56,924 nucleotides of DNA from a virus (lineage: Duplodnaviria > Caudoviricetes). The notes below the pieces were generated by a model. The model had not been told where the DNA came from. It was given only the letters and a program-made list of their open reading frames with translations, and did not search any database. The stretch covers positions 1 to 56,924 of IMG/VR virus record IMGVR_UViG_3300045781_000081, one strand, 5' to 3'. The position numbers and the translations under genes were made by a program. Shown one piece after another: positions 5,068 to 42,693 of this stretch (position 1 is the stretch's first letter; the number at the start of each line of letters is the position of its first letter).

Positions 5068-5631
5068 CTATACCACTGACTGTTCCAGCGCGTCAAGAAT
5101 TTTGACAGCATAACCGGCGATTCGGTCAGCACAGTCGGTCCCGTTGATGATACGCCGGGCATTGAGAAAGTCACATTTCTCCCCGGAAATATAGTGCGCG
5201 AGGCCGACGCCGGTAAACGATCCGTTTCTCATGCCGTAGGACATGATGCGATAGGCGATTGCCGGTTCCATGGCAAGGTCGGGTTGACGGTAGAGGTCCA
5301 CGCCGCAGACCTCCCCCATGGTTTTGAAATTTCCTGCCCACGTTAACTGGACAAACCCGCGTCCGTAGTACCGCTCCCCGCTCACCGGGTCCGGTTGACC
5401 GTAGGGGTGTCCGGCACCCTTGCCGTCTTCCGCAACCGGCTCGTAGGTGCCCCCGGTTTCATGCAGGGTTGTTGCCAGCATGTAGGCCGCGTGCCGTAGG
5501 TCGGTCACGGCAGCGTCGGCCTCCAGGAAGCCGAGCAACGCGAGCAGACCGGTCTGCGCCGCCGGGGTGAGAGTGCCGAATTCGGCCTGCTCGTAGATGA
5601 AAAGAAACTTGTCACGGTTGATCTCTTGCAT
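5068..5631 (-). CDS. Endolysin, glycoside hydrolase family 19
   Basis: AYMLATTLHETGG, YYGRGFVQLTW, ARRIING. Confidence 0.92.
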   Translation of the reverse strand: MQEINRDKFLFIYEQAEFGTLTPAAQTGLLALLGFLEADAAVTDLRHAAYMLATTLHETGGTYEPVAEDGKGAGHPYGQPDPVSGERYYGRGFVQLTWAGNFKTMGEVCGVDLYRQPDLAMEPAIAYRIMSYGMRNGSFTGVGLAHYISGEKCDFLNARRIINGTDCADRIAGYAVKILDALEQSVV

Positions 5632-5700: not shown

Positions 5701-7314
5701 TTAGTTGAGCAGTAACCATCCTGCCGAGTTAATCGTGTTTTTCGCTTTATACCACTTGCTGTTTGTGGTGTCCAAATACTCCTCACCGATATAGTCTGGA
5801 GTACTCCCTGGCGCACCTACCCCGCTGCGGGGGCTGTTATTAATCAGTATCCAGTCTGCAACAGTGGAATTGAACTGAGCGCGATACCATCTCCCAAGAA
5901 CTATGTCCCAGTACATGCACCCCTCATAAGGCGGTGCGGCTGAGGGTTTGACAGACGCTGTTATAGTCCCAGGGTTAGCGAATCTGACCATAGTTCCATC
6001 GGCTCCAATTAGTTGCTTGTAGTACGTAGGTGTAGTCGTGGGGTCTGTAAGCTGGCTCATAACTGAAGAATCTTGTTGGACGATACCCCCAAAATCGACA
6101 TAGGCGTAGGTTCCGTCTATGTCAAAATAGTTTGCCCCTATTTCAAGCCCCGATATTTGCTTGGTTCTGGTATTGGTATATGAAAATTGGATAGGGGCCG
6201 TGGCATTTGCCCCAGTATCAGCAGTTTTCATGCTTAGGTAATTTCCTGATATTTTCAGGCCGGCAACATAATGCACTATATTCGGGCCTGATGCTTCGTA
6301 GTCTGTCTTTCCTCGGATGTGACCGTATCCGTTAATCTCAAAATAATTATTCAAGATAGTACACATCGACATACTGGAATCTGTCGTGGTCATTCCGTCG
6401 CCGGTTAATAAAACACCAGACCCGGCGTTGCCCTGTATCACATTGTTATTGATGTTAAGATTATTGGCCCATACCTCAACACCGTGGCCACCGTTATTTT
6501 GAATATGGCTATTTGTAATATTGACGGAGTTTAACTGTTTCGTTGTTTCAGTTTTACCGTAAATACCTGACAACGTGCTGCCGTTGATATAGCAGTTATC
6601 TATATTTATGACTGATGTATTTACGCCCCCACCAAGAACAAGCCCATATGAACCTGCGTTGACTATATTTACCCTGTTGATTGTGTGTACCCCACCATCA
6701 CCATTTATTGATAGTGCATTCCCCGAGGTGGAAGTGCGCGCCGTGTTCGTATTGCCGACCAGAATTAGGTCCTCCATGACAAATGACGTAGCAGTCACGG
6801 ATATACCTGTGCTGGCACTCATGTTTCGCAGGGCCGTCCATGCGAGATCGGCCCCGATTCCAGGACCTTTGATCGTGAGGGACTCGCTGACCGTCAGGGC
6901 GTTATGCCGATAGACTCCAGGACTGACGTGGAGCAGTCCGGTTCCCGCCGTGTTTATGGCTGCCTGGATCTTCACCGTGTTGGCTGCTTCGCTCCCCACC
7001 GTATCCCCACCGTCCGGCGCAAACCAATCCAGCCAAACCTCAAGCAATCCGGTAATGGCGCCGGAGCCAGAGTACGAAATCGAGCCACCTTTTTTAACCT
7101 CCAGCTTCCTATCTGCCGGCCATGCGATGACGGTACTCACGACTTGAGGGGTTGTGACTATGATGGTTTTGCCTGCACATTGCACATCCGTTGCCGCAAC
7201 TGCCAGCGTTGTTTTAGCGGTGTAGGTTCCGTTGCTGGAAGAAACCAGCACGGCTGCATCTACATTCACAGCCAAACTGCACAGGAGTAGGATCAAAAAC
7301 AAAAACTTTTTCAT
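5701..7314 (-). CDS. Tailspike/depolymerase, right-handed beta-helix, with N-terminal signal peptide
   Basis: IQAAINTA...PGVY start of the beta-helix; Asn-rich repeats; MKKFLFLILLLCSLAVNVDA leader. Confidence 0.8.
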   Translation of the reverse strand: MKKFLFLILLLCSLAVNVDAAVLVSSSNGTYTAKTTLAVAATDVQCAGKTIIVTTPQVVSTVIAWPADRKLEVKKGGSISYSGSGAITGLLEVWLDWFAPDGGDTVGSEAANTVKIQAAINTAGTGLLHVSPGVYRHNALTVSESLTIKGPGIGADLAWTALRNMSASTGISVTATSFVMEDLILVGNTNTARTSTSGNALSINGDGGVHTINRVNIVNAGSYGLVLGGGVNTSVINIDNCYINGSTLSGIYGKTETTKQLNSVNITNSHIQNNGGHGVEVWANNLNINNNVIQGNAGSGVLLTGDGMTTTDSSMSMCTILNNYFEINGYGHIRGKTDYEASGPNIVHYVAGLKISGNYLSMKTADTGANATAPIQFSYTNTRTKQISGLEIGANYFDIDGTYAYVDFGGIVQQDSSVMSQLTDPTTTPTYYKQLIGADGTMVRFANPGTITASVKPSAAPPYEGCMYWDIVLGRWYRAQFNSTVADWILINNSPRSGVGAPGSTPDYIGEEYLDTTNSKWYKAKNTINSAGWLLLN

Positions 7315-7326
7315 GCTGGATCTCCG

Positions 7327-8190
7327 TTAAAATGGATCATTGGTGTTATATTGGAACGATAAGATTACCCAGTTACTTGTTGTCCATGATGGTGCCCATG
7401 CAAGGTTGATATACACGTATCCGCCAACACCAGTGTTAAGCATTGCGCCAGTTGCCAGGTTCACGCCTGTGATTGCTTCATTGCTAGCGTTGTTGTACGG
7501 TAGACTGAAATACGTGCTATTCCCAGCAGCAGAAGTTGACCCCGTTGACTGAATAGCCAGAGTGCAGCAGACCCTGCGTCCAATCCTTGTATATGTTCCC
7601 GTGTACGTTGGAGTCCCGACAACGGTTAAATTGGTCGGCGTTGGTGTCCAGGTCCCTTCCTTGTAACCAGTGAGCGGAGTTGTCCCGGCAATGGTTACCG
7701 AGGTGGTAATGTTAGGAGTTATGATGGTTGGGCTGGTATCCATGACAAACTTGTTGCCGGTGCCGGTCTGACTTGCCACGGTTGCCGCTGCCGTCACGTT
7801 CCCGCTGCCGTCAAAGCCGGGCGATGTCCAGGTGATGGGGCCGGTGATCCCGATAGTCCTAGCAGTCTGCAACTTTGTCGCGGTGGCCACATTTCCAGCA
7901 GGTTGAACGGCCGTCGATAGCGAGGTATGATCTGCCGCTGTCAGCGCTCCAGGTTGGCTATTTGTGGCCGCCTGCAGGCTGAGTACCTGTCCGGCAAGGG
8001 ATAAGCCGTTGGCGGTGCCGATGATGACGTTTTTATGATTTGACGTGTAGGCGCTGAATCCGGTTATGTCGCCCGGGACCGTGCCCACCACCACCATGTC
8101 GGGCTTGCCGGTCTGTGGATTGTTTTTGTAGCCGTAGGTGAACCCGCACAACAGCATCGTTGCAAGAAATAGAAAAGTTGATTGTCTCAT
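7327..8190 (-). CDS. Tail fibre protein with hydrophobic N-terminal leader
   Basis: ATATKLQTARTI and YKEGTWTP...GTYTRIGRRV fibre motifs. Confidence 0.8.
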   Translation of the reverse strand: MRQSTFLFLATMLLCGFTYGYKNNPQTGKPDMVVVGTVPGDITGFSAYTSNHKNVIIGTANGLSLAGQVLSLQAATNSQPGALTAADHTSLSTAVQPAGNVATATKLQTARTIGITGPITWTSPGFDGSGNVTAAATVASQTGTGNKFVMDTSPTIITPNITTSVTIAGTTPLTGYKEGTWTPTPTNLTVVGTPTYTGTYTRIGRRVCCTLAIQSTGSTSAAGNSTYFSLPYNNASNEAITGVNLATGAMLNTGVGGYVYINLAWAPSWTTSNWVILSFQYNTNDPF

Positions 8191-8194
8191 AATT

Positions 8195-8770
8195 TTACTC
8201 CACATACCAAGTTGATCCGTTAAGAATTAAGTGGACACACTCACCTTGTAACGATAGCGGATCAAGTGGTACGGTGCGCGGTGTAGTATCTGTAATTGTA
8301 ATTACGTTAACAGTCGCATCGGTTTTACAAAGTCTAACGTCATTGCTCCCGTTGAGATTGTATACAATAGAGCCGGTTGTCGCGTCAAGAAATAATTGCA
8401 GACCATTTGATCCTGCTCCACTGGACGATATATTGTCCTGAGTGTATATCAAACTGGAAGCTGAATCGTAAACTGCGATTTTATAAAATCCCGTGATCCA
8501 AATTGACCCTCGACCCGCCGAGTCAAGGACCACCGGATTAGCATTTGGAGTTACACCCGTCGAGTCGGTGTAACTTGACTTGAGTGTCACACTACCCGGA
8601 CCACAAGATGTACCGGGTTGACAGGTGTAAATTTTGCCGCCGGACAAAGGTAGTCCTTGGTTGCTGAAAAATTGCAACTTTGGCATCGGCATAATATTAG
8701 TCTGCGCAGCCTGAGTTGGTGCGACAGAGACGATAAACAGAATGAGAGCGAAGAGAGTGCGGGTTAACAT
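8195..8770 (-). CDS. Tailspike head-binding/adaptor domain protein with signal peptide
   Basis: PKLQFF..G.PLSGGKIYT...NPVVLDSAGRG is typical of podovirus tailspike N-domains; MLTRTLFALILFIVSVAPTQA leader. Confidence 0.8.
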   Translation of the reverse strand: MLTRTLFALILFIVSVAPTQAAQTNIMPMPKLQFFSNQGLPLSGGKIYTCQPGTSCGPGSVTLKSSYTDSTGVTPNANPVVLDSAGRGSIWITGFYKIAVYDSASSLIYTQDNISSSGAGSNGLQLFLDATTGSIVYNLNGSNDVRLCKTDATVNVITITDTTPRTVPLDPLSLQGECVHLILNGSTWYVE

Positions 8771-9135
8771 GTGGTTACCTCATTGATAGCGGTTTCATAG
8801 GTCACCCAGTCGCAGCCGGTCAGGACGATAAAAAGCCGCTCCAGCACGTCGGCCTCCATATGAGTTTTGTGGTAGGGCGCATCCGGTAACAGGCCGGGGT
8901 CGTCGTGATCCAGATGCGCCAGGTCGAATTCGTCAACCAGAGCGTCGGCGATACCGAGCTGGTCATTGCGGAATTTTTCATGCAGTTCGTGCAGCAGGAT
9001 CGCCATGCTGTGCGCCGGGTTGGGCATGACGGTGATCTGGAACACCGTAGCGTTCGGGGTGTCGAAATAGTCGCCCACCTGACCCGGTATTCGTTGCTCT
9101 GACTGTGATATGAAGTCGATAATGATTCGTTTCAT
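8764..9135 (-). CDS. Putative zincin-like metalloprotein
   Basis: HELHE on a helix after beta-strands; distal PYHKTH..A...E. Confidence 0.55.
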   Translation of the reverse strand: MKRIIIDFISQSEQRIPGQVGDYFDTPNATVFQITVMPNPAHSMAILLHELHEKFRNDQLGIADALVDEFDLAHLDHDDPGLLPDAPYHKTHMEADVLERLFIVLTGCDWVTYETAINEVTTC

Positions 9136-9362
9136 GTGGTCACATCCCCCTCGGCAACATATCCTTTAAACCAAATTTTATGTAGCAGTACCCGCCAACC
9201 TGTCAATTTACGGTCCGGTTGCCAATGTGTGACTTTGCCTTGCGGTGACTCATGCAAAAAATGCGGTATCAAGCGGCATTGAGAGCAGCGTCGTACTTTG
9301 AGATAACCACCATGTTTGCACCACATTACCAGTGCGTAAACTATGCAGTTACACCTCCGCAT
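9132..9362 (-). CDS. Hypothetical phage protein
   Basis: NC..YAL..W...GGYLKVRR...PHFLH pattern; overlaps both neighbours. Confidence 0.6.
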   Translation of the reverse strand: MRRCNCIVYALVMWCKHGGYLKVRRCSQCRLIPHFLHESPQGKVTHWQPDRKLTGWRVLLHKIWFKGYVAEGDVTT

Positions 9363-10914
9363 GTTTAAAGTCAATGCCTGCAACACGCTTGCCTGCTTCG
9401 ATCTGTTTGCCCGCCTCGTCAAAGATGGTCGGGTCATGCTCCAGGTCGTCCGCCTTGATCGTTTCCACGATGGCGAGCGCCTTTTTGGCCGCTTCCTCGT
9501 AGGTCTTGCCGCTGGCGGTCACCGCACCGAAAAACGAGCCGTTACCTGCGGGGATACACCGATACTTACCGCCCTCGCGCAGATGATTTTTGAGTTTGAT
9601 GTTGTCGGCGTGTTCCGGCGGGAAGTCCACGACCAGTTCGTGTTCCTCATGCCAGGGGCTGCGCAGGACCACCTCTGCGATGTACGGGTTATCCCACTTG
9701 GGTGTCGGTAGGATACCACCCGCACACAACCATGCCACCTCGGCGTAGTTCGTGATGTGCTGACACATTGCCTCGGACGGCGGTGAGGGTGCCCGCTGGG
9801 TGGCGTCGATGAAATACCCCTTACCATCAGCCGTGAAAATGATTTCCGTGGACAGGTGACCGTTGTAGCCGAGCTTCTGGTAGATCGGTGCAACTGCCTG
9901 GTTCACTTTGTCGATACTGGCCGGCGTTTCGGCAAATACTTTACCGAGCAACCCACGGTCCTTTATCTCGTAGCCAAACAGGCAGTTTTTGGTGTACTCA
10001 CCGTTGACGCAGAAACCGTCGTAGCCGCCCTCGGCTTCCTTCTTGAGCACGTTCTGCACCAGGACTTCCAGGGTCCGGCTGGCGTGATCCCCGATACGGT
10101 GTTCCACGTCCTTGAGCTTCGATTCAAACTGCATCATGTTACCGGGGTACTTCATTGTTTCAAAGTCTTCCCGATAATAGGGAGTTTTGAGCCATTTTGG
10201 GCCTTTCCCGTCGAGATACTGCCGTAAGGCGTCCGTACCCTTCACTCGGTGCGTGTATGCCACTGGCAGGCCGACGCGGGTCAGCTCTGACAGGAAAAAA
10301 TCTTTCTCCAGTTCCATTTTCTCGGAAAGGCCGGACCCGAATACCCGGTGACCCTCCCCGCGCAGGTAATGTTGGAGGTCGCCGTCGTAGCAGTCGGGGA
10401 AAAACACCATGTCCGCTTTGTCCAGGTACTTCCAGAACGAGTACACCCGCTCGATCTCCGGTAACCCGGTGCCGATCAGTTTGAACCGGCTGGAGGGGTA
10501 CGGTGCGCTCTCGGCGAGGTAGAACCAGACCTTCTTGAACTTCTCGCCGAGCTTCTGCGCCAGGAAGATGTAAAGTCCCTTGCGACCGTAGACCAGGCAG
10601 GTCTTGTCCGACAGGTCAACCGAGTCGGTCACGTCCTTCTGCTTGATCCCTTTCGCGGCAGCATAGATGTGACTATGCAGACCTTCCGGTGGCACATTGC
10701 GCAGCTTGGCGGCTAACTGCGGCTCGTATTTCTTGAGCCAACCGAGCGCCTGCTTCCTGGTGAGGAACATCTGACCGCCGGGCGTGAAACCGTGGGCCGA
10801 GTCAGGCAGATTGTCGGGTAGACCGCGACCTTCGATGATGGTCACATGGGTGTCGGTGGGGGTGCCGGTCACTACGGTACCGTCAGGCAGGCGGATTGCG
10901 GGTAGAAGTCTCAC
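9349..10914 (-). CDS. ATP-grasp (PurD/GARS-like) ligase with extra N-terminal domain
   Basis: VFGSG...MELEK, GLPV, WLK, GYEIKD, STE, FIDATQR..PP; GTG start after GGGAG. Confidence 0.75.
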   Translation of the reverse strand: MRLLPAIRLPDGTVVTGTPTDTHVTIIEGRGLPDNLPDSAHGFTPGGQMFLTRKQALGWLKKYEPQLAAKLRNVPPEGLHSHIYAAAKGIKQKDVTDSVDLSDKTCLVYGRKGLYIFLAQKLGEKFKKVWFYLAESAPYPSSRFKLIGTGLPEIERVYSFWKYLDKADMVFFPDCYDGDLQHYLRGEGHRVFGSGLSEKMELEKDFFLSELTRVGLPVAYTHRVKGTDALRQYLDGKGPKWLKTPYYREDFETMKYPGNMMQFESKLKDVEHRIGDHASRTLEVLVQNVLKKEAEGGYDGFCVNGEYTKNCLFGYEIKDRGLLGKVFAETPASIDKVNQAVAPIYQKLGYNGHLSTEIIFTADGKGYFIDATQRAPSPPSEAMCQHITNYAEVAWLCAGGILPTPKWDNPYIAEVVLRSPWHEEHELVVDFPPEHADNIKLKNHLREGGKYRCIPAGNGSFFGAVTASGKTYEEAAKKALAIVETIKADDLEHDPTIFDEAGKQIEAGKRVAGIDFKHAEV

Positions 10915-10930
10915 GATATGCTCCCTGTGG

Positions 10931-11101
10931 TTACCCGAGCTTTTTCTGCTTTGAAACTCCAATGACGACCGGGGCAGTTGCAATCTTTTTAGGTCGAAAA
11001 TGGGTGGTGCGGAAATTATTAACGCGGTACGACTTGGTAAAACATCCGGCGTCAACGGACACAGCGAACACTAAAGCCACGAAACACAGTAAATACCACA
11101 T
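10931..11101 (-). CDS. Small basic peptide with signal-peptide-like N-terminus
   Basis: MWYLLCFVALVFAVSVDAGCFTKSY..., 56 aa; TAATG coupling to the upstream gene. Confidence 0.5.
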   Translation of the reverse strand: MWYLLCFVALVFAVSVDAGCFTKSYRVNNFRTTHFRPKKIATAPVVIGVSKQKKLG

Positions 11102-14100
11102 TATTCATCTCCTGTTTTAATGTATTTTTCCATCTTTTTAAGTATTTCCAACTGTTTTTTGGAGTACATAGTGTTGCCCGATTTAGTCTGTCCTTCCCTT
11201 GCGGACTTAGCGTCAGCACCTAACCACCCACGCACGTACGCGTCGTAGGTAGCACCACCTTCCGCCCCCCCACCGTTTACGTCTTCCCACCATGCCCGTT
11301 TACGCTTTATACGCTCCTGTTCCTCGGGGGTAAAGTTCTTCATGAACTCGTCACGTAGCTTTTTAAACTGCGGGTCACGGTTCATACCATGTATCATGTC
11401 ACCATAAAGCGCTTGTTTTAGCTGCGCGGGGTCTTTCTTTAAATCGTCGCCGTATATCTCAAGGATGTTTTTACCTTTTGACGGGTGCGGCCAATCCTTG
11501 GTACCACCCTCACTGTCCGGCCAATACTCCAGACCGACATTACCCATACGTTTCCGAGCTTGATTGGTTCGATCTGGATCAGCGAATATAACGGACGTAT
11601 TGTCTTTGTTGTGAATCTTTGCCAATCCTTTGTTTTCATTCAGTACCTGCTGTAACACCAACTGCTCCGGGGTGAGCGTGGCGGGTGCCGGGACGCTCGG
11701 CTGCACCATACCCGGTTGCTGCGGGGTAATTACTTGCGGACCCGCCACGCCGAGAATCTGCTGGGTGCCGTCCGCGTTCAGCAGTGTTTCCGGCTGGTTC
11801 TCACCTGTGAGGTATTTCTGACCAGGTACAACCGGCCCACCGTCTGCACGCGGTATTGGCTCGCTGTCGTCGGTGCCCCACTGGTCGGTCGCGCCCTGCG
11901 ATACCGCCGCGCCGGCAGCGCCTCGCACGGTGGCCTGCTTGGCGTACCCCCTGACGCGGGCGGCTATCTGCTTACACATCGCCTCGGACACTCCGCGCTT
12001 GGTCTGTGACGCTTGGAACGCCTCGTTGAGTAGTCGGCCGTCTTTTGGGTTGAGTGCGGCCTGGTCAACGAACTGCTCGATCATCTCACCGTGTTCTTCG
12101 ATCATCCCTTTCATGAAATGACGCAGCACGTTGGCACCTGTGTTGACTACCGCACCGCCGGCATAACGCAACACGTCCCGTGCCACGCCGTAGCCTACCT
12201 GACCCATTTCCTTGGATTGCAGGAACGACGTAGCGGATTGTGCGCCGTGGGGAGATGTCTTGTTGCGCGACAGGTTGCGGATGGTTTCATGGAAGTCCGA
12301 CAGAGCATCCCTCTGCTTGCCGTCGAACACCTCGTGCAGCATCCGCTTGGTACGTGCGACCGTCAGTTTCTTGGACTTACTCAAGGTCGTTTTGTTGAAA
12401 CCCAACATATCCTCGGCGCTGACTTCCCCGCTGGTCATGACCCAATCGCGCACCGCCACCTGGAGGCCCGCCTTGTAACTCGGGTTACCCTTGCCGTATG
12501 CCAGCACCTCTCGCATCGCGGCGGCAGGATCGGTCTGCTTATGAATCCACCCCACTATCGTGTCCGGGTCCATTTCCATGATCTTGCCGACCGTCGATTT
12601 CTGGAACTGCTCAAGGGTAGACTGTGCTGCCGCGACGGTCTGCTTGGCACGGCTAACGTTGGAGAATTCGTCGTACAAACCGAGCTTTTGCAGGACCGGC
12701 TTGACCTTGGGGGAGTTGAGCCAGGCGGTCAATTTCTTCGGATTGTCCAGCATGGTGGCGGCTTTGTCAGCGAAGTGATCGCGCATCAGGTCGCCGGCAG
12801 CTTTGCGCCCTGCATCGGTGATTTCCAGCTTGCCGCGTGCGTCCCGTTTGTTGCTATCGCTCAGTGACCGCGCCAAGTCCTCGGCTCCCGACTCCGTTTC
12901 AAATTTTGCTGGTAATTTCTCGGCGGGCAGGCGCTGGCCGCTGGCTTCCTTACCTTGCCGGAACACCTCGTCACTGGCACCTTTACCGTAGCGGTCGGCT
13001 TCCTCGCTGGCGAGAGTGGTTGCACGCTTGTACTTGGTTGCGAAGTCCTCGGCGGGTTGTAGCTCGGTGAGCTGTTTCTGCTTCGCCGCGATAGCCGCTT
13101 TGATGTCAGCTACAATTTTGGGATCAACGGCGGATACGCTTGGCACCGGCTCGTTGGGAAACCGACGCTTCCACTGCTTTTCCAAGCGAGCGGTGTAACC
13201 GTCCGGTTTCTCCCCGGTCATTTTCATAGTCGAGGTGTCACCCGATTCTTTCAACTTGGCAGCCATTGCTGCGGTGTCGGTTCCGGCGGCTTTCCCTGAC
13301 CCGTCTGCCAGGCGCTTTTCCAATGTGGTTATTTCAGCCTTTACCTCGGACGGTCTGACGATCCGTTTCTCATGGATAGCCACATCTCCTGCCTCGACTG
13401 CTTTACTGAACGCTTCCGCGTCGGACCGCAACGCATCCTTCGCTTTTTGCAGCAGCGCGACGGCACGACTTGCGCCAGGTGTCTTGCTCCCTTGGAAGTC
13501 CCGAATGTAGCTGTTGAGGGTCTTATAAACCGCGTCGTATCCGCTGGTACTCTTGGCTTTCTCCAGCGTGCCCTTGACGATCCCGATCACGTTTTTTATT
13601 GCCGGGTCGGCCTCGGTGGCGGCGGATGCTTCCAACTCCCCTACATGCTTTTCGTAGTTGGGGAATTTCATCTCGTAACCGAGTGCATCCACCTCGTCGT
13701 AGGCGGCTTTCTTGGCGGCTTTCTCCGGGGTCCGTTTGGTGGTGAGCGTATCAGTTATGCGCTCTCCCACGGTCTGTGGTGAGTCGGTGGCAGCGAGCGG
13801 TCTGCCTGCCGCGTCAGCGGCTTGCCCGGCAATCTCAACCTCGCCCGTGAGCGCCGCAGCATCAGCTTTGATGCGATCCCTCACGGTCCTTGCACCCTCA
13901 CCAGTCTCACCGGGTATCGCACGGTCCACACTCTCGCGTGCAGCCGCAGCCAACGTGTTGTCGTTCAGCTCGGCGGCGATAGCGTGAGTCGGGTCTTTGC
14001 TCCTGGTACGGCGCACCATTTCGTTCACGGCGTGCTGCGGCATACCCAGTTCACCGGGGGTGAACGCTGCACGCTGTTCCGGCGGGCGGTGCTCCATGAT

Positions 14101-14916: not shown

Positions 14917-14917
14917 T

Positions 14918-16654: not shown

Positions 16655-16665
16655 TGCCTGCCCTC

Positions 16666-18045
16666 CTACGACTTAAGGTAATTTGCCAGCACGTTGGTGC
16701 CGTAGTTGATTGCAGGTGCCCATGAATTACCAGCATTAACGGTGTATGGTGCCGCACTGGAAGCCGCGCTGGTCAGGTTGGTACCCTGCGATGTAGCCAC
16801 ATTTGCACCGAGATTACCGAGTTGGTTGATTTGTCCCGGATTGGCGGCGCTGGCGAGTGTGTTGGTTTGCTGTGCGACTTGGTTCATATACGGTGTGTAA
16901 CCGGACTGCATGGCAATCAGCGCGTTCTGCTGTGCCAGGCTGTTAGCGAGCGCCGGGCTACCGGAGTTGCCGGTAGCGGCAGCGTGTGCGAGAGCGGTCT
17001 GGTCGGCCTGTTGTGTGGCTGCCTGCGCGACAGCGTAAGGAGTGGACGCTTGGTACGCCTGCGGCGTGTAGGCAGTGAGCGGGTTGAGCGCACCGTTACC
17101 AGTGGTCGCCGCCGTGTAGGTTTCCAAACCTTGCTGCTCGGCAGCCACATAGGGTGCGTTCAAACCTTGTGTGTATGCCCATTCGGCAGCCTGTATCTGG
17201 TTGGCTTGAGACGCCGCAGCGGACATGTTGCTTGCTGCTGCTGTATTTGCGTTGTTGCTGAGAGCAGAGCTGAGCAAACTACCAGCAGCGCCGACCAAAC
17301 TGCTCCCGGTGCTTCCGGTACCGAGCAAATTGGTCAGACCGGACAAACCGGTTCCACCGGCAGTGGATGCGGAAGCAGACAGACCTGCAACCGCTGTGCC
17401 GTCCGCACCGATTACCGATCCACCTTCACCGATTGACCCGATCACCGCTCCATTTGACGCTGTAACGGACCCGTCCGCACCGATGGTGCCGACAATGGTA
17501 CCGGACGAATCAACTACCGTGCCTGCCGCTGCACCCGCTGTGGCGGCGTCAATGGACGACGCGGCGGATAGGCCGGCAATTGGAGCACCATTTGCTCCGA
17601 TCACCGCTCCACCTTCGCCGATTGAACCAAGAGCGATACCGCTGCTGGATATAACCGTACCGTCAGCGCCGATTGTTCCAACTACTGCACCAGTTGAGTC
17701 AATTACTGAACCAGCAGTACCGGCAACAGTGGTGGTAGCAGCACCACTTACCCCCGCACCTGCACCTGCACCTGCACCTGCACCTGCACCAGCTATTTCA
17801 GGAAGTATTGCGGCACCTACCGCACCAAAGACTGCTGCTGCACCGCCAACCGCAATACCTCGTATGATGTCACCGAACAAACCACCACCAGGCATCGCAT
17901 CAAGTTCGGCTTGAGTGTATGGGCGTTGTTCGGTGTAATTCCACAGTGTCGGGTCCGTGTACGGCACCAGACTCTGCCCACCGTTGATAGTACTGGTTCG
18001 GGTGTTATTGCCGTTTACCATACCAACAGTAAAGTCGTCACTCAT
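16666..18045 (-). CDS. DNA ejection/pilot protein (gp7-like position)
   Basis: Gly/Ala-rich; PY..A...GL and AAATG..GS motifs; RBS before MSDDF. Confidence 0.72.
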   Translation of the reverse strand: MSDDFTVGMVNGNNTRTSTINGGQSLVPYTDPTLWNYTEQRPYTQAELDAMPGGGLFGDIIRGIAVGGAAAVFGAVGAAILPEIAGAGAGAGAGAGAGVSGAATTTVAGTAGSVIDSTGAVVGTIGADGTVISSSGIALGSIGEGGAVIGANGAPIAGLSAASSIDAATAGAAAGTVVDSSGTIVGTIGADGSVTASNGAVIGSIGEGGSVIGADGTAVAGLSASASTAGGTGLSGLTNLLGTGSTGSSLVGAAGSLLSSALSNNANTAAASNMSAAASQANQIQAAEWAYTQGLNAPYVAAEQQGLETYTAATTGNGALNPLTAYTPQAYQASTPYAVAQAATQQADQTALAHAAATGNSGSPALANSLAQQNALIAMQSGYTPYMNQVAQQTNTLASAANPGQINQLGNLGANVATSQGTNLTSAASSAAPYTVNAGNSWAPAINYGTNVLANYLKS

Positions 18046-18056
18046 AACGCGTTCTC

Positions 18057-18392
18057 CTATGTCCACACCAGTGCGTTGACTTCCAGGTTCAGTTTGCTGG
18101 CAGCGTCCGCATAAAATGCAACCGAGTCGCCGGGATAAAGCACTTTGGAACGACTGTAGGTGTTCGGTCCATTGCCAGCGGCCTGCACCACCTCGCCGTC
18201 GTAATCGAACGCTGCCGCGCCGCCGTTGGGTGTGGTTTTCATGTAGAACTGGTGGGTCACGGCGTCGATGTTGGAGACATGAATCTCTTTCACAACAACT
18301 TGTTTCACGCCGGTTGCCGGGACTGTGTAGACCAGAGCACCACCGACAAGCGGCAGAGTCTGTAAGGGAAGTAGTTGAAAAGGGGTTATCAT
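18057..18392 (-). CDS. Small beta-rich virion protein
   Basis: YTVPA...VVKEIHVSN...VLYPGD pattern; structural operon. Confidence 0.65.
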   Translation of the reverse strand: MITPFQLLPLQTLPLVGGALVYTVPATGVKQVVVKEIHVSNIDAVTHQFYMKTTPNGGAAAFDYDGEVVQAAGNGPNTYSRSKVLYPGDSVAFYADAASKLNLEVNALVWT

Positions 18393-18393
18393 G

Positions 18394-18768
18394 TTAGCCT
18401 CCCACAGAGAACTGCGTTCTTATATCACTTATTTCGCGTCGGAGTCCAGCTATTTCAGCGCGATAATCACATTGCATTGCTAATTCCGTTCGCATATCCT
18501 GTATCGTCCTACGCAACCGAATCAGTTCACTGTCATACAACATTTCCATTGAAAGCTGAGTCTGAATATCTTGAATTGATCTGCGCAGCGCAGTTATTGC
18601 TGATTGAGCGTCGTAATCCATTGACGACTGTGCAACCGACGCATCGGTGCTGTCGGTGCCGATCGCTGCCGCATTGTTAACGAACCACAGATACCAGGCG
18701 GGCGACATGACACCTGATTTCGCGTCCAGGAACATCGGCGTTCCTATCGGTGGCGGCCGTACACTCAT
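18394..18768 (-). CDS. Tail needle-like protein (gp26 position)
   Basis: PP...P..D..SG.MS.AWY.WF N-terminus plus three ~23-aa coiled-coil repeats. Confidence 0.6.
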   Translation of the reverse strand: MSVRPPPIGTPMFLDAKSGVMSPAWYLWFVNNAAAIGTDSTDASVAQSSMDYDAQSAITALRRSIQDIQTQLSMEMLYDSELIRLRRTIQDMRTELAMQCDYRAEIAGLRREISDIRTQFSVGG

Positions 18769-20471
18769 TCTTCCACCTCCGCATACCCACCGAGCAGGAT
18801 CACCCGGCAGGCGTCACTGCACCTGATCTGCAATACCCGATCCCGCGCCTTACCCTGTCTGCGAAAAACTACACGTGTGTTGTACTGACCCGCGTTACCC
18901 ATCGACTTGATTTGCTCGTTACCGAACGTGTGTCCACCGTCCTTCGACCAACTTAGAGCCATCACCGGTGTGACTGCCGGGCCGGCGAAAACGACTTGCG
19001 GTGGTGCGGTGTAACCAGCTCCCGCCGCCGTCACGTTCACCCCGGTAATCTGACCGTTCGCCACGACCGCAGTTGCCGCCGCTCCCGCCCCGTTACCGTC
19101 CACCGGCACGAAAACGACCTGTGGTGCGGTTGAATAGTCGTAACCGGGCGTGACCACCGTAACCGACCAAACGCCGTCTGCCACCATGGTTGCGGTCGCG
19201 GTTGCCGGCACGACGGGTCCGTTGTTACCGACTCCGGTTTCCAAGTCTATCTGGAACTGAGAAATGAAAAAATTAGCAAGCGACTGTTTGTCGAAGATGT
19301 GCCCTGTCCGGCGCAGCCGAACTATCGGTAAACCGAAATCGGTACTGTAGTTGTCCGCCATCTGATAGATATTGCCCGATTGCCAGTCTCCTACCAGGTG
19401 CATATTGTTGAACCGAGCGTAGGAATTAGTTACGTGTCGGTTGACCTGATACGAGCTGTCGCCATAGGTGGACCTGTCATGCCATTTCTGCGTCGTCAGG
19501 TCGTAGACGAGCGTCTGGTTATCACCTGGTGAGGTGAACGCTATAAATGTATGACCACCTTCACTATAACTCCAGCCGAAAATATTTGGTATGCCGGTCC
19601 ACTGGCTCATTTGATAAATGATTGCCTGTGACGCAATGAACTGCGGTGTGTAGCCGTTGAGTATGACAGGACCGACGAATACTCCACCGTTATCAGTTTG
19701 CTGACAGGCCAACCAAATGGCGGCACCACCGGCCAAGACAAGTGACCAGGGTGACTGCGTACCGTAGGGAATGACTGCACCTTGGATGCGGTCGAAAGGC
19801 AGACCCACGGCGGTGCCGGTGGTGCCGGTGTCATAGAAAAATTCAGTATTGTATTGCTTGACGATCATCAGACCTTGTGGTAATCCGACCGCTGTCTGCA
19901 CATTGTCCTGTAGGAACTGAACGGCTTTATAGGCACTAGCACTCCATGACATTGCATCATACTGATCGCTGGCAGACACCATCATAGTGCCGTTGGTGAG
20001 AATTATGTAACCGTCTTGATATGCAAGATGTGTTGGATTGGAGGGAAAACCTGGCGACGTGACGGCGGCAAAAACATTGGTCACGATGTTGTAGACGTAC
20101 CCTGTTTGCCCGTCCACAACCAATATCTGGTTGCCACCGACACCTTGCGCCTGCACACCATTATCCATCATTGAAACACGCCCGGTAACGGTGCCGAGCG
20201 TGCCGAGCAAAGAGAATGTGCCGAGAGGCGACACGGCGTAAAGACCGGACCCGGAAACGACGAAAAGAGCGCCAGCAAAAGGTCGTTTACCACGAATCGG
20301 ACCACTACCGAGCGACTGCCATAACGCGCAGCCCGGCGTGCTAACAAGCGATATTTTGGCCTTACCCATCGGGTCGGTGTCGATTTCAGGGTAAAGATTG
20401 ACGGTACGGCTTGCATTGGCGGCTACGCTGCGTCCTGCACCCGTACCGTCGAGTATTGCCAATTCGGCCAT
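18765..20471 (-). CDS. Head-closure/tail hub protein (P22 gp10-like)
   Basis: NLYPE, TPG, GPIRG, YDLTTQKWH, WSKDGGHTF. Confidence 0.9.
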   Translation of the reverse strand: MAELAILDGTGAGRSVAANASRTVNLYPEIDTDPMGKAKISLVSTPGCALWQSLGSGPIRGKRPFAGALFVVSGSGLYAVSPLGTFSLLGTLGTVTGRVSMMDNGVQAQGVGGNQILVVDGQTGYVYNIVTNVFAAVTSPGFPSNPTHLAYQDGYIILTNGTMMVSASDQYDAMSWSASAYKAVQFLQDNVQTAVGLPQGLMIVKQYNTEFFYDTGTTGTAVGLPFDRIQGAVIPYGTQSPWSLVLAGGAAIWLACQQTDNGGVFVGPVILNGYTPQFIASQAIIYQMSQWTGIPNIFGWSYSEGGHTFIAFTSPGDNQTLVYDLTTQKWHDRSTYGDSSYQVNRHVTNSYARFNNMHLVGDWQSGNIYQMADNYSTDFGLPIVRLRRTGHIFDKQSLANFFISQFQIDLETGVGNNGPVVPATATATMVADGVWSVTVVTPGYDYSTAPQVVFVPVDGNGAGAAATAVVANGQITGVNVTAAGAGYTAPPQVVFAGPAVTPVMALSWSKDGGHTFGNEQIKSMGNAGQYNTRVVFRRQGKARDRVLQIRCSDACRVILLGGYAEVEE

Positions 20472-20481
20472 GTGGTTACCC

Positions 20482-21219
20482 CTATACGTCGTCGCCGTTC
20501 AGGATGTTGAAGGTGCTCTTTTTCATACCGGGCAGGTCCATACCGACCAGCAACTGCGTACTGTTCATCGACTTGATAACGTGCATCGACTCACGTGCAG
20601 CTCTCAGAATGTCGGCGGGTATCGCTGTGTTGTGACCGCGATACTCATGATACATTTCGACAGCGCCGTTGAACTTGATCGCACGGAGATAGAATGACTC
20701 CAGGGTGATCACATCAGTGGGGTTAACAAACTCGGTGAGCATTTTCTGCTCGGTGATGAACGCGGTGTAGGAGGTGGTCGCGTCGGGAATGTAATAAATA
20801 TTGACCATCCCGACCTGTGGATTCTGCTGGGTATAACCGGGGTCGAAGAAAAGAGCACAGGGTCGCCCTTGGGTGAACGACTTGTCCTCGCGGGCGTTGT
20901 ATTGGTCCTCGGTGTAGATGTCCAGCGGCGTGTCAATCGACTGGCTGTCACGTATGAACGCTTCGGGTATCGCCAGCGGTTTGCTGGTGTTCCAGGTCTG
21001 ACCGATCCCGATTGTGTACTGACCGACGTTGGCGGTCAGCGGAAAACTCTCTTGTATCAGCGCACGAATCATCAGCCGTTGCGCCGACCACGAATCGAGC
21101 ATGATGTTGTTCGCCTGCACGGCGGCATTGATCATGTCGGTGTCAGGTGTTTCACCGGGATCAACGACGCCGATTAGCCGTAACTGTGCCAGAACTATGT
21201 CCTGTACGGTTAGTTGCAT
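20482..21219 (-). CDS. Head-tail adaptor (P22 gp4-like)
   Basis: TVQDIV...LRLIGVV.PGETP...N.MLDSW. Confidence 0.85.
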   Translation of the reverse strand: MQLTVQDIVLAQLRLIGVVDPGETPDTDMINAAVQANNIMLDSWSAQRLMIRALIQESFPLTANVGQYTIGIGQTWNTSKPLAIPEAFIRDSQSIDTPLDIYTEDQYNAREDKSFTQGRPCALFFDPGYTQQNPQVGMVNIYYIPDATTSYTAFITEQKMLTEFVNPTDVITLESFYLRAIKFNGAVEMYHEYRGHNTAIPADILRAARESMHVIKSMNSTQLLVGMDLPGMKKSTFNILNGDDV

Positions 21220-21615
21220 TTAGACCGCCGGGGGCGCTTCGGGCGCGGGCGGCACGACGGGCGGTCGGCCCGGTTTGCCGGCCTTTTCCAGCGCGGAAAC
21301 CCTGCCGCTGACAGATGCGAGCAACTGCCCCTGCCCTTTGATCATTTCGGGGTTGGGCGCAGCGGCCCGCAGCTCGGCAACCTCTTTACGGAGCGCCGCG
21401 ACTTCGGCACGCAGGTCGTCCAGGCTGTCCGGGGTGAGCAGCACGACCGGCGCGACTTCTTCCGGTTCCTCGGGTTTCTCAACCGACCATCCCTGTAGAA
21501 TGTGGTACTCCAGCGACTCCAGGTTATCAACGCGGTACTCCGCGCCGCCTAGTTTGTAAATGGTTACGGGGAAATCGTAACCGAGCAAGTTTTCATCGTC
21601 GTCCTCGATCCGCAT
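21220..21615 (-). CDS. Hypothetical virion-associated protein, paralog B
   Basis: FPVTIYK...HILQGWSVE followed by a coiled coil. Confidence 0.7.
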   Translation of the reverse strand: MRIEDDDENLLGYDFPVTIYKLGGAEYRVDNLESLEYHILQGWSVEKPEEPEEVAPVVLLTPDSLDDLRAEVAALRKEVAELRAAAPNPEMIKGQGQLLASVSGRVSALEKAGKPGRPPVVPPAPEAPPAV

Positions 21616-21969
21616 TTACTTGCCCCCTTCCGGTGCGACGGGCGGCACCGCCTGGTCAGCCGCAGCAGGCTCGACGGGTGCAGTAGGCTCGACGGGTGCT
21701 GCCGGTTCGTGCAGGATCGCTTCAAGCGCAGCAACTCTGTTGGTCAGTTCGTTGAGCGAACACACCTGTTCATCCCTGAGCGAACACACCTGTTCAGCCA
21801 ATTCAACGAGTTTCTGGTTGCCCCATTTCTCGATGTCTGCGGCGGACAGGTCGGCAAGACTGGTTGCGGTTTCCACCGCCCACCCCTGACCTAAATGAAA
21901 GTCAAGAGCGGCCTGGTCGTACACGGAGTATTTGAACTCGCCTTTTTCGATGGTTACGGGAAATTCCAT
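21616..21969 (-). CDS. Hypothetical virion-associated protein, paralog A
   Basis: FPVTIEK...HLGQGWAVE followed by a coiled coil. Confidence 0.7.
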   Translation of the reverse strand: MEFPVTIEKGEFKYSVYDQAALDFHLGQGWAVETATSLADLSAADIEKWGNQKLVELAEQVCSLRDEQVCSLNELTNRVAALEAILHEPAAPVEPTAPVEPAAADQAVPPVAPEGGK

Positions 21970-21973
21970 GACG

Positions 21974-22129
21974 TTATTTCTCCCCTTTGATGTAGTCGGC
22001 GACGGTCGGCTCTTTTTTCTTTTTCTTACCGGCGGCGAACGGGTTTTTGGTTTTGCCGACCGCCGGTTTTTTAGCTTTGGCGACTTTCTTTTTCTTCTTG
22101 GATTCTTCCGTACCGAGCATGTTTTTCAT
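21974..22129 (-). CDS. Lys-rich 51-aa basic peptide
   Basis: MKNMLGTEESKKKKKVAKAKKPAVGK..., read by hand; fills the gap between neighbours. Confidence 0.65.
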   Translation of the reverse strand: MKNMLGTEESKKKKKVAKAKKPAVGKTKNPFAAGKKKKKEPTVADYIKGEK

Positions 22130-22134
22130 CGAGT

Positions 22135-23679
22135 TTATTCCTCCGTGAGTGCAACGTTAATTCCAAAACTGGCTGCGCCGAGTGCGCCCGAATCGTCGAT
22201 AGCTATACCGTTGGTTATACCCGCAGGAACAACCAAATCTTTCACCGTGCCAGGTGCGATACCTAATGGAGGCCACACCTGTAGTGGTGGTTGACTCGCC
22301 ACCGCAGTGGGCACCCAAAACTGATACGTGAACAGGGTTACGCCTGCCGTACCGTCGATGCCGGATGCGCGGGTGATACCCGAATACGCGGCGTCCGCAG
22401 CGTCTGCCGGGTACGGTGTGACGGCACCTGTGCTGCCGGCGGCGGACGTGCGTTTAATTGTCAACGTCCGCATACCCGGAGTAGTTTGCGCTCCTACGTT
22501 GGTAATGTAGATCGACCTGACCCGTGTCACCTTTACCACTCCTGACTCAACGGCAACCGCTTGAACCGCAGCAGTATTCGCTTGACCGGACGCGGAAAGA
22601 ATGTATGTCGGTTTATTGGAATTGTCAACTCTTATGCTCGCCGCCACATCCGATGCCGCTGAAATTACCGATGCAGGTTTCAAGGTCTGTTTGCGCCAGG
22701 CGTACTGACCATCACTGATCTGGATGTTGTTCTTGGCTGTGTCAGAGACGGAAACCGCATTGCTGGTGAGAGTTGCGGTCGTCGTGCCACCCTGCACAAC
22801 CAGATAAGCCGACGAAAGTGTGTCCACACTGAGCGCGGATTGCGCGAGGGAACTGGTGCAGACTGGCACGTCCGAATTGTCGATATTCCAGTAAATTTTG
22901 GTAGGACGGTAAAAAATCTGGTAATTGTGAGTCGTACTGTCTTTGGGTTGCACGCCAGTTCCGGTAGTTGCCGACAGGTCACAGACCGCAGTTCTTACGC
23001 CCGCCTGGTACACAGCAGCATACATCTTACCGTCCGTGTCCACCTCAAACACTGCGGCGTCGGTGAACGTGTTGGAACAGGCCGGGCAAGCCGTCGAACT
23101 CGGCACTGCCTGTACCTTGCCACCGCCCCACGCCATGTATGTGGACGCGACGACCGGGTAGGGAACAGCAATGTTGTTTGCGTACCTGATCCAGCCGGGT
23201 GTGCTCGACGTGAACGTAGGTTGGCTGGTCAGGTATGAGTACCCGTTTAACGTGGTACCGGTACCAAGTGTCAGGTTACCGGCGCTCTGTGACGCGGCGA
23301 CACCACCACCCCCCGACACTGCGGCGTTCCACCTGTTGGTGGTGTCCAAGGACGCACCATTGTCGAAAGGGTCTACAAAGAGTTGGTGCGGTTCATCCGT
23401 CACGCGCTGGTACCCGGCAGGGAAATTGGTACCGTATATCCCCGCTACGGATTGTGCCGGTGTCGTGCTGGTACTGAACAAAAACCCGTTGGTGTCGGTC
23501 CGCAGCAATCGCACATACGTTCCATCCGAACCACCGATCAGAACAGGATTAACTTTGGTTACCACACTGCCGTTCGCCGCTAAACCCTCCGCTCCCACGG
23601 TGTTTCCAACGTAATCGGACGCCGCCGCCGGCAACACCGCAACGACCAACAAACACAATAAAACCGATAACATTTTCAC
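22135..23679 (-). CDS. Beta-rich (lectin/ConA-like) putative virion-surface protein with signal peptide
   Basis: MKMLSVLLCLLVVAVLPAAA leader; D.FD..SLDTTNRW and HNYQIFYRP..IYW.ID patterns. Confidence 0.7.
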   Translation of the reverse strand: MKMLSVLLCLLVVAVLPAAASDYVGNTVGAEGLAANGSVVTKVNPVLIGGSDGTYVRLLRTDTNGFLFSTSTTPAQSVAGIYGTNFPAGYQRVTDEPHQLFVDPFDNGASLDTTNRWNAAVSGGGGVAASQSAGNLTLGTGTTLNGYSYLTSQPTFTSSTPGWIRYANNIAVPYPVVASTYMAWGGGKVQAVPSSTACPACSNTFTDAAVFEVDTDGKMYAAVYQAGVRTAVCDLSATTGTGVQPKDSTTHNYQIFYRPTKIYWNIDNSDVPVCTSSLAQSALSVDTLSSAYLVVQGGTTTATLTSNAVSVSDTAKNNIQISDGQYAWRKQTLKPASVISAASDVAASIRVDNSNKPTYILSASGQANTAAVQAVAVESGVVKVTRVRSIYITNVGAQTTPGMRTLTIKRTSAAGSTGAVTPYPADAADAAYSGITRASGIDGTAGVTLFTYQFWVPTAVASQPPLQVWPPLGIAPGTVKDLVVPAGITNGIAIDDSGALGAASFGINVALTEE

Positions 23680-42406: not shown

Positions 42407-42427
42407 GTCGTCGGCTCCTTGGTCGGG

Positions 42428-42688: not shown

Positions 42689-42693
42689 GTTGT

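Follow-up and report, generated by a model that had tools for sequence, protein, structure and literature searches.

Four proteins of a P22-like podovirus, the tailspike adaptor, the tail fibre, a beta-helix spike and a 514-residue protein with a predicted lectin fold, begin with leaders that have the architecture of Sec-type (signal peptidase I) signal peptides; the presence of export signals on host-recognition proteins suggests that the particle is finished outside the cytoplasm, by a route that has not been described for tailed phages. The genome is a complete 56.9-kb metagenomic record and is identical with the window, i.e. the whole stretch of 56,924 nucleotides that was analysed. In the textbook account tailed-phage assembly is wholly cytoplasmic, and all tailed-phage virions of known assembly are put together in the cytoplasm, but P22 tailspikes can add to finished heads in vitro. 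Our search of the literature found no description of tailed-phage host-recognition proteins with export signals, or of extracytoplasmic finishing. We give about even chances to the explanation as a whole, in which the four proteins carry cleavable Sec signals, fold outside the cytoplasm and join the particles at or after holin action.

Leader peptides in the window

The leaders have been scored by a heuristic for the n-, h- and c-regions that was made for this analysis and is distinct from SignalP; the Sec-type criteria are a short basic n-region, an uncharged hydrophobic h-region of about 8-15 residues, and small residues at positions -3 and -1. All four leaders fit this architecture, the fibre weakly: their n-regions are MKK, MLTR, MK and MR, their h-regions comprise 13-14 residues, and the predicted cleavage sites fall between VDA and A, TQA and A (adaptor), AAA and S, and TYG and Y. 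None of the four n-regions contains the RR of a Tat signal, and the lipobox [LVI][ASTVI][GAS]C is absent from the ends of the h-regions, where LLLC stands in the spike and LLC in the fibre, Leu occupying position -1. The window leaders are rich in Leu, Ile and Phe, unlike signal-anchor-release (SAR) segments, which are rich in Gly, Ala and Ser.

Scores of at least 40 occur in three of the 73 greedily called open reading frames (ORFs) of the window, namely the lectin-like protein (53.0), the spike (47.3) and the adaptor (40.2); the fibre scores 28.7, below the highest score among the remaining window ORFs (32.9). As a background rate, 28 of 868 ORFs of at least 80 aa from 80 related loci (3.2%) score at least 35. 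The core parts of the virion yield no leader score at all with the heuristic, in agreement with the initial annotation: the P22-type major coat protein (26799..28046, minus strand; PF11651, E 4.5e-24), the portal protein (29494..31896, minus strand; phrog_156, E 7.3e-99), the gp10-like tail hub (18765..20471, minus strand; phrog_578, “head closure Hc3”), a candidate gp4-like head-to-tail protein (20482..21219, minus strand; phrog_12985, the gp4 name being given from position alone) and the ejection proteins.

The initial annotation had placed leaders on these same four proteins, where we find them again, with good ribosome-binding sites (RBS), and had raised the possibility that the true starts lie downstream of the leaders. 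The leader starts are secure: an RBS is located 6-8 nt upstream of each of the four start codons, each start lies at most 12 nt from the upstream stop codon or overlaps it, the operon being tightly packed, and the internal Met codons have no RBS ahead of them.

The adaptor and its head-binding domain

The 191-aa adaptor (8195..8770, minus strand) begins with the leader MLTRTLFALILFIVSVAPTQA (8708..8770, minus strand; residues 1-21, with predicted cleavage after TQA), followed by A; GAGG is located 7 nt before the ATG, which overlaps the upstream stop. The leader is followed by a head-binding, i.e. virion-anchoring, domain at about residues 26-118 (8417..8695, minus strand), delimited by alignment and by a PDB profile search, and by a C-terminal domain of about 75 aa; the cysteines of the mature protein are located at positions 50, 56, 148 and 178, with C50 and C56 in an inserted loop of the head-binding domain. 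The profile, which was built from a family of 47 sequences with the window adaptor first, matches 7eeq_A (“Tailspike head-binding domain”, E 6.9e-15), with positions 10-87 of 94 covered, and also 9vyg/9vyh (“Tail spike protein”, E ~1e-12), while the single adaptor sequence reaches only E 0.063 against the 7EEQ-type family. By these sequence comparisons, the adaptor is assigned to the solved tailspike head-binding-domain family, and its homology implies that it would bind to the tail hub as a trimer.

The adaptor resembles the 7EEQ, 9VYG/9VYH and P22 gp9 type in its profile match, in the invariant NANPVVLD core of its head-binding domain and in its occurrence as a single gene. The solved chains and 72 of the 80 IMG/VR relatives, however, start directly with the domain, whereas the window adaptor has its 21-residue Sec-type leader and a Cys pair in the inserted loop; the 72 relatives begin with M..P.PK.QFF, which bears out the initial annotation in its view that the leader precedes the usual start of the protein. 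The adaptor is the sole head-binding-domain gene of the window genome. Exactly one such gene is found in each of the genomes G000, G001, G002, G004 and G005, and it bears a leader in G000, G001, G002 and G005, with the best RBS ahead of the leader. In the closest relative of the adaptor (P0058, 72% identity) the leader is kept with a different sequence and the same build, and the head-binding domain is strongly conserved in the leader-bearing members, NANPVVLDSAGR included.

Leaders, cleavage register and cysteine pairs across the adaptor family

Leader-bearing adaptor homologues occur at 8 of the 80 IMG/VR loci, and make up 57 of the 146 top representatives of an adaptor family with 13,983 matches, a sample that is biased by the leader-bearing query; the leader is not seen in any cultured phage of our INPHARED copy, where two apparent cases proved to be alignment artefacts. 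In 53 leader-bearing members the predicted cleavage site precedes domain position 1 by a median of 2 residues (IQR 1-2); Met1 precedes this position by a median of 2 residues (IQR 1-3) in 90 leaderless members. Predicted cleavage would restore the N-terminus of the leaderless members; only once the leader is removed does the head-binding domain form the very N-terminus of the adaptor, as it does in those members.

The leader-bearing members also have a Cys pair, YTC-x4-C, at places where leaderless members have Y or A; 13 leaderless members share the loop, with A..A in place of C..C. Among the 146 representatives, 38 have both leader and pair, 19 the leader without the pair, 3 the pair without the leader and 86 neither (odds ratio 57, Fisher p 2e-17, a value that overstates independence because the phylogeny-aware test, with 5 independent pairs on supported branches and a median p of 0.5, has no power). 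At least one of the three leaderless exceptions, P0066, was called from an internal Met. Of the IMG/VR loci, 5 of the 8 with a leader have the pair, as against 0 of the 72 leaderless ones.

Variations occur in a few relatives. Three distant ones have an LSGC lipobox in the leader, which would suit membrane tethering better than incorporation into the virion. A large leader-bearing protein comes after a leaderless adaptor at the loci L018, L021 and L028, and therefore the partners need not share a compartment before lysis; alternatively, these large proteins may not be virion parts.

Spike, fibre and lectin-fold protein

The spike (5701..7314, minus strand; 537 aa) is a right-handed beta-helix protein of the spike or depolymerase type, with the leader MKKFLFLILLLCSLAVNVDA followed by A, and GGAGA located 6 nt before the ATG. 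Its residues 200-329 match PF13229 (39.2 bits against a cut-off of 25.9); it is a near-orphan in the homologue searches, no virion-anchoring domain was found in it, and its single-sequence structure model is unusable (pLDDT 40.5).

The 287-aa tail fibre (7327..8190, minus strand), identified by a PHROG tail fibre match, has the leader MRQSTFLFLATMLLCGFTYG followed by Y, with GGAG located 7 nt before the ATG at 8190. The leader is followed by a conserved N-module, GFTYG-YKNNPQTGKPDMVV, and by a fibre repeat region; the central motif has matches among annotated tail fibres from phages of Synechococcus and Acinetobacter. YKNNxQTGKPD occurs in 17 of the 120 fibre homologues listed, and a hydrophobic leader lies ahead of it in all 17. 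The initial annotation's statement that YK.NP.TG normally begins the protein is thus contradicted, the motif YKNNPQTGKPD never being N-terminal. The Cys of the leader is missing in 5 of the 17.

The 514-aa protein (22135..23679, minus strand) has the leader MKMLSVLLCLLVVAVLPAAA followed by S; GGAGG is located 8 nt before the GTG, which overlaps the stop of a mini-ORF. The structure model has a pLDDT of 69 overall and of more than 85 in its core; the leader is followed by some 60 aa of linker modelled with low confidence, a jelly roll at about residues 90-315 and a C-terminal beta domain. Foldseek matches the model best to laminarinases of GH16 and to L-type lectins (E 1.7e-7 downward, target TM 0.49-0.67), and the jelly roll is, according to the model, of the Concanavalin A-like lectin/GH16 fold. 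The GH16 catalytic motif is ExDxxE; this motif is absent from the protein, which has a nearly invariant Glu212 within FEVDTDG and may be a lectin or an enzyme. The window protein and P0004, which both bear leaders, are the only members of this family with four cysteines; none of the 22 leaderless members has them.

The mature proteins have even numbers of cysteines (spike 4, fibre 2, adaptor 4, 514-aa protein 4), and the adaptor pairs and the CPAC of the 514-aa protein are located where the initial annotation described them. Leaders accompany gained Cys pairs in two unrelated families, adaptor and lectin. A leader-bearing tailspike (P0060) and the leader-bearing lectin P0004 are both found on contigs of 55,633 and 55,916 nt, and this 55.6-kb sister phage probably keeps both leaders.

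Candidate lysis genes and the proposed route of assembly

The endolysin candidate (5068..5631, minus strand), which may be GH19-like, has no leader or SAR segment, and no signal by the heuristic. It adjoins a holin candidate of 91 aa with two hydrophobic segments (4688..4963, minus strand), proposed from position and hydrophobicity alone; an i-spanin-like protein (3398..3751, minus strand) is suggested by a membrane segment at the N-terminus with a charged helical region after it. The endolysin thus appears to be soluble and holin-dependent, and therefore the inner membrane would be opened before release.

In the route that we propose, the adaptor, fibre, spike and lectin-fold protein would each be made with a cleavable Sec-type signal peptide and pass, still unfolded, into the periplasm of a diderm host, where they would fold and form disulfide bonds in an oxidising compartment. 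Leaderless heads, portal, tail hub and ejection proteins would assemble in the cytoplasm, and the exported receptor-binding set would meet the particles only once the inner membrane has been broken by the holin, or after lysis, with the adaptor docking onto the tail hub through its conserved head-binding domain. Export and oxidative folding, as put forward in the initial annotation, are supported indirectly, by the secure starts, the cleavage register, the leader/Cys link and the sister contigs; export itself, with cleavage, disulfide formation and late joining, is what we infer. That the set attaches during or after lysis may reasonably be proposed because the sole head-binding-domain gene has a leader and the endolysin is apparently soluble and holin-dependent, and joining after holin action would be the best-fitting mechanism. 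Escape from cytoplasmic immune sensors and superinfection exclusion, which the initial annotation also offered, are speculation. That short-tailed phages finish their virions in this way in a sizeable minority of cases, put at about one in ten for the head-binding family in one unbiased sample, by Sec export, oxidative folding and holin-timed docking, is a tentative generalisation, to which we give somewhat less than even chances.

The four proteins could instead be exported without being virion parts, and act freely in the periplasm or at the surface, trimming or binding glycans of the envelope (destroying or masking receptors, excluding other phages or freeing progeny from debris), with any virion copies derived from leaderless isoforms made at internal start codons. 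The beta-helix and lectin folds suit glycan work, and a precedent is WceF, a bacterial protein exported by Tat that has a beta-helix and a P22-like head domain and can act as a free enzyme; the lipobox of the three adaptor relatives, the leader-bearing depolymerase/esterase genes that adjoin leaderless adaptors at L021 and L064, and the presence of Met27 and Met29 directly before PKLQFF in the window adaptor point the same way. Yet four complete or near-complete phage genomes have no head-binding-domain gene other than the leader-bearing one, the internal Met codons are without an RBS in the window, G001 and G005, the spike has no in-frame Met near its cleavage site, and the virion-anchoring domain stays highly conserved in leader-bearing members; we consider this reading unlikely.

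Less probable still is that there is no export, the hydrophobic N-termini remaining in the cytoplasm as a membrane-proximal assembly site or chaperone handle, or the leaders being untranslated, with true starts downstream. The cytoplasmic assembly of known tailed-phage virions favours this, and gene calls such as P0066, from an internal Met, and P0003, the database call for the lectin, which begins two codons after the window start, show how later starts are chosen; downstream starts, however, would leave gaps of 60-80 nt without an RBS, the build and frame of the leader are kept while its sequence drifts (window versus P0058 and P0004; L002 versus L026 and L060), and the leader/Cys-pair link would be left without a reason. 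The least probable reading, and a very unlikely one, is that the leaders are uncleaved signal anchors holding the proteins on the outer face of the inner membrane until de-energising or breakage allows release or pick-up, much like SAR endolysins (such segments being known for phage endolysins, PMC6116005): it gains from the fibre leader, the weakest as a cleaved signal, whose LLCGFTYG end is conserved along with the mature motif, and is opposed by short h-regions followed by canonical small-x-small sites, by the register in 53 relatives and by the composition of the leaders.

Comparison with known systems

Filamentous phage pIII and pVIII are virion proteins with signal sequences that are assembled at or beyond the inner membrane; they differ from the window set in their unrelated folds and in belonging to a non-lytic virus extruded through the membrane, whereas the capsid of the window phage is of the HK97/P22 type and is filled in the cytoplasm. 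The exported tailspike-like glycanase WceF of Pantoea stewartii acts on envelope polysaccharide and has an export signal ahead of a P22-like head domain and a beta-helix; it differs in being one fused chain with a Tat signal, encoded on the chromosome in an exopolysaccharide gene cluster, whereas the window genes belong to a complete phage's tail module, lack the twin arginine and encode adaptor, fibre and spike as separate chains. The secreted endolysin Lys44 of phage fOg44 and the SAR endolysins are tailed-phage proteins with a Sec signal or signal anchor, kept outside the cytoplasm until lysis (PMC6116005); unlike the window set they are lysis enzymes and not virion parts, and the window's own endolysin has no leader. 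The chimeric fibre proteins of Bdellovibrio are described as phage-fibre-like proteins deployed on a cell surface, but are encoded by bacterial genes for prey recognition.

If the proposed route is correct, it would be a two-compartment assembly route new for tailed phages. Were the proteins exported, the last assembly step would depend on host Sec, signal peptidase, Dsb and holin timing, disulfide bonds could stabilise the fibres, and the host-range proteins would already be located in the envelope ahead of lysis, where receptors could be another target for them. To express these depolymerases for practical use, constructs that are leaderless or periplasmic would be needed, and engineered host-range swaps in such phages would have to retain the leader, the start of which gene callers and annotators may trim or misread.

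Leader-bearing genes of the window

The four proteins for which the initial annotation had proposed N-terminal signal-like leaders of the Sec type (signal peptidase I), i.e. the 191-aa adaptor, the 287-aa tail fibre, the 537-aa beta-helix spike and the 514-aa lectin-like protein, all carry them where it had placed them, and a Shine-Dalgarno match is located 6-8 nt upstream of each start codon. Each of the four genes is tightly packed against its upstream gene: the adaptor ATG overlaps the stop codon of the preceding gene, the fibre ATG is located 4 nt past the adaptor stop, the spike ATG is located 12 nt past the fibre stop, and the GTG of the 514-aa gene shares bases with the TGA that ends a 29-codon mini-ORF; starts located after the leaders would mean gaps of 60-80 nt without ribosome sites.

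The 73 ORFs that greedy calling gives for the window have all been scored with a simple heuristic of our own, which uses the n-, h- and c-regions and the -3/-1 rule and is no replacement for SignalP. A score of at least 40 is reached by three of the 73, namely the lectin-like protein (53.0), the spike (47.3) and the adaptor (40.2); the fibre leader, at 28.7, is outscored by the best unrelated ORF of the window (32.9). None of the core structural proteins of the window scored under this heuristic, in agreement with their earlier description as leaderless. In 80 related loci, 28 of the 868 ORFs of at least 80 aa (3.2%) reach a score of at least 35, several of them being small spanin-like lipoproteins. 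The leader observation is real, and it is stronger than first stated, because leaders recur across families and genomes.

The adaptor and its relatives

As a single sequence, the adaptor gives a weak PDB match to 7EEQ, "Tailspike head-binding domain" (E 0.063), while a profile of 47 N-domains (alignment A1) matches 7EEQ with E 6.9e-15 and the tail spike proteins 9VYG and 9VYH at about 1e-12; the leader thus precedes a domain that, in its solved relatives, fastens spikes to the tail. By profile, there is exactly one head-binding-domain gene per genome, both in the window and in four further records that are complete or nearly so; this sole gene is leader-bearing in records G001, G002 and G005, where the best ribosome site is located ahead of the leader, and leaderless in G004. 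Among the best 80 IMG/VR loci with adaptor homologues, eight are leader-bearing (L002, L005, L026, L029, L042, L043, L060 and L079) and the remaining 72 begin directly with M..P.PK.QFF, which bears out the proposal that the adaptor leader precedes the usual start of the protein. The G+C content of the leader-bearing records spans 37-60%, so a single host group does not account for them. From 1.84 billion representatives, a HMMER scan retrieved 13,983 matches at E <= 0.001, the best 150 of which have been analysed; this sample is skewed toward leader-bearing forms, because the query itself has a leader. Leaders in cultured Vibrio phages, suggested by tblastn, were rejected: translation gave the true start MAVAIIGPKFYAWD, and the upstream match is part of the preceding gene.

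Relative to model position 1, the predicted cleavage site of 53 leader-bearing members and the Met1 of 90 leaderless members have the same median offset, 2 residues ahead of it (IQR 1-2 and 1-3, respectively), so that leader removal restores the usual N-terminus. Leaderless members of the family read GGKLYTY-AGTTTPK or, when a loop is inserted (13 sequences), YTA-x4-A-GPGQ; the common reading in leader-bearing members is YTC-x4-C-GP. Once five rows with internal or partial domains had been removed (homologues P0077, P0095, P0113, P0116 and P0189), 38 members have both leader and Cys pair, 19 the leader only, 3 the Cys pair only and 86 neither (n=146; odds ratio 57, Fisher p 2e-17), the uncleaned table reading 37/21/4/89. 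One of the three leaderless exceptions with the pair, P0066, is a gene call from an internal Met, and the same sequence is leader-bearing in L002. Of the IMG/VR loci, 5 of the 8 leader-bearing ones have the pair, against 0 of the 72 leaderless ones. A phylogeny-aware test, underpowered with five usable contrasts (independent pairs, 90-column tree), gives a median p of 0.5; the association is strong as a description of related rows and is not established as a set of many independent events. The leader sequences drift while their build and reading frame are kept, both between the window and P0058 (proteins 72% identical) and among L002, L026 and L060, whose mature parts are near-identical.

In three head-binding-domain proteins (P0092, P0108 and P0167), the leader contains an LSGC lipobox, followed 4-6 residues on by a site of the signal-peptidase-I type; these proteins may be either lipoproteins or ordinary secreted forms. 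A leaderless short adaptor is located beside a leader-bearing large protein in L021 (6695-8881), L018 (6676-8445), L028 (6636-7958) and L064 (8255-9022), the leader-bearing partner being a beta-helix protein with a K1-lyase C-terminal domain in L021 and a SASA esterase in L064. Two records with a leader-bearing tailspike encode a further leader-bearing, Cys-rich protein: 645 aa with 10 Cys in G005 (41422-43374) and 1008 aa with 12 Cys in G003 (44716-47742).

The tail fibre and the spike

The fibre has matches to tail-fibre PHROGs and to a repeat motif found in annotated tail fibres. Among its 120 listed relatives, 33 have a leader score of at least 33 and 17 carry the N-module leader-GFTYG-YKNNxQTGKPD[LM]V ahead of otherwise divergent fibres. 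The motif YK.NP.TG had been taken as the normal beginning of the protein, which does not hold: none of the 17 module-bearing listed relatives starts with it, and the leader precedes it in all. The module, absent from every other locus examined, seems to be a conserved docking element, always accompanied by its leader. A complex prediction of three mature adaptors with three fibre N-termini scored 0.00 and returned no verdict.

The spike has a Pfam beta-helix domain and is otherwise an orphan, with no phage match; a search of 5.8 billion proteins returned its own fragment and one weak match only, and its single-sequence model has a pLDDT of 40.5.

An exact 13-nt repeat, TGGTATGTGGAGT, occurs twice on the minus strand of the window (8197-8209 and 23757-23769), with 0.07 expected and two copies in 0 of 100 shuffles. 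Each copy is located at the 3' terminus of a gene, the product of which ends in ...GS[TI]WYVE, and the ATG inside the copy opens a hydrophobic ORF that starts with MWS, i.e. the long-form fibre ORF and the 29-codon mini-ORF; similarity around the copies fades within about 22 nt, and the repeat may be a module junction. Three genes are located between the ejection proteins and the adaptor (minus strand, 9349-11055, 9132-9437 and 8764-9135): neither the large (~520-568 aa) nor the 123-aa protein is assignable to a Pfam or PHROG family, and the 101-aa protein has five Cys within 26 residues.

The lectin-like protein and its surroundings

The predicted structure of the lectin-like protein has a confident core; among its matches are GH16 glucanases, L-type lectins, a receptor-binding domain of a mycobacteriophage and, in tailed viruses, numerous proteins that are uncharacterised or assigned to the minor tail. 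Single-sequence PDB searches with this protein and with the spike gave chance matches only. The 53 relatives of the lectin-like protein are mostly located on phage-sized contigs; no relative was found in IMG/VR or in five leader-bearing records. In the 24 relatives examined, leaders occur only in P0004 (71% identity) and the distant P0054, the other 22 starting with varied leaderless extensions. Four Cys in the alignment (CPAC, AVCDL and VCTSS) are confined to P0004 and the window protein; in the nearest leaderless relative, P0005, their places are taken by F..S, Q and A. Contigs of 55,633 and of 55,916 nt are on record both for P0004 and for P0060, the latter a head-binding tailspike of 673 aa with a leader, the simplest reading being one sister phage that keeps both leaders.

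The putative 29-codon ORF (23676-23765, minus; MWSYFKSPLFTVLVLSATAIAISYWRYTP) has one membrane-like segment. Directly upstream of the lectin-like gene, a 422-aa head-operon protein (23749-25017, minus) carries a Methyltransf_24 domain (E 5.9e-14) at its C-terminus, its N-terminal half being unassigned; modification of glycans or virion proteins by it is conceivable. Adjoining the coat gene, a 555-aa Ala/Thr/Val-rich repeat protein (25077-26744, minus) has weak PHROG matches to domains of head-closure and baseplate proteins and is possibly a decoration or head-fibre protein.

Probable export of the leader-bearing proteins

Summed over the readings considered here, export of the four leader-bearing proteins is very likely, and both export and oxidative folding have good indirect support; the four mature proteins contain 4, 2, 4 and 4 Cys. 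The endolysin candidate has no leader and adjoins a two-segment holin-like gene, which suggests that cytoplasmic and exported products are kept apart in this phage and that the inner membrane is opened ahead of release. The spikes would meet the particles after the holin step, either within the still-bounded envelope or after lysis; since the leader is located on the sole head-binding-domain gene, such a meeting would be the simplest way for the particles to gain spikes. P22 spikes can be added in vitro to finished heads, so a late, separate joining step is chemically plausible. The whole chain, from export through to the late joining of spikes to particles, the last step of which we infer, seems to us evenly poised between right and wrong.

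The idea that virions are finished outside the cytoplasm is plausible and testable, and apparently new to the literature: the full texts covered, which take in a minority of subscription journals, contain no account of tailed-phage receptor-binding proteins with Sec leaders, and this is not proof of absence. In the signal-peptide passages of one review (PMC6116005), phage signal peptides are mentioned for endolysins only.

That the exported proteins are free enzymes and not virion parts is unlikely, with some evidence in its favour: exported WceF offers a precedent, and the reading is also favoured by the lipoboxes of the three adaptor relatives and by the loci where a leaderless adaptor is followed by a leader-bearing beta-helix/K1-lyase or SASA esterase gene; this role suits the adaptor less well than the lectin-like protein and the spike. 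That there is no export at all is decidedly improbable. Least probable, given the cleavage register of the adaptor family, is the reading of the leaders as uncleaved signal anchors.

Genome organization and relatives

The 56,924 bases of the window form one entire IMG/VR virus record, the completeness of which is judged as 100%. Its minus strand contains a P22-like morphogenesis block: terminase, portal (phrog_156) and a scaffold-like gene; a P22-type coat (PF11651, E 4.5e-24); the 555-aa and 422-aa proteins; the lectin-like protein; a gp4-like protein and a gp10-like hub (phrog_578); a needle-like protein and three large ejection-type proteins; the three small or unassigned genes; adaptor, fibre and spike; and the endolysin candidate with the holin-like gene. 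Podoviruses of Pseudomonas, Rhodoferax, Xanthomonas, Vibrio and freshwater samples, cultured as well as uncultured, have coat proteins that share 28-37% identity with that of the window. DNA megablast against 50,697 phage records found no nucleotide-level relative, and a search for whole-phage relatives with the gp10-like protein gave a single weak IMG/VR match. Fourteen loci in genome contigs, four of them leader-bearing, are located mostly on MAG contigs with scattered labels, from which a host name is not derivable.

The window also encodes DNA polymerase, primase, helicase, exonuclease and single-strand-binding protein. The exonuclease gene (53922-55709, plus) is apparently fused to an N-terminal homing-endonuclease-like domain, and a PAPS-reductase-like gene (49304-50230, minus) is located in the replication module.
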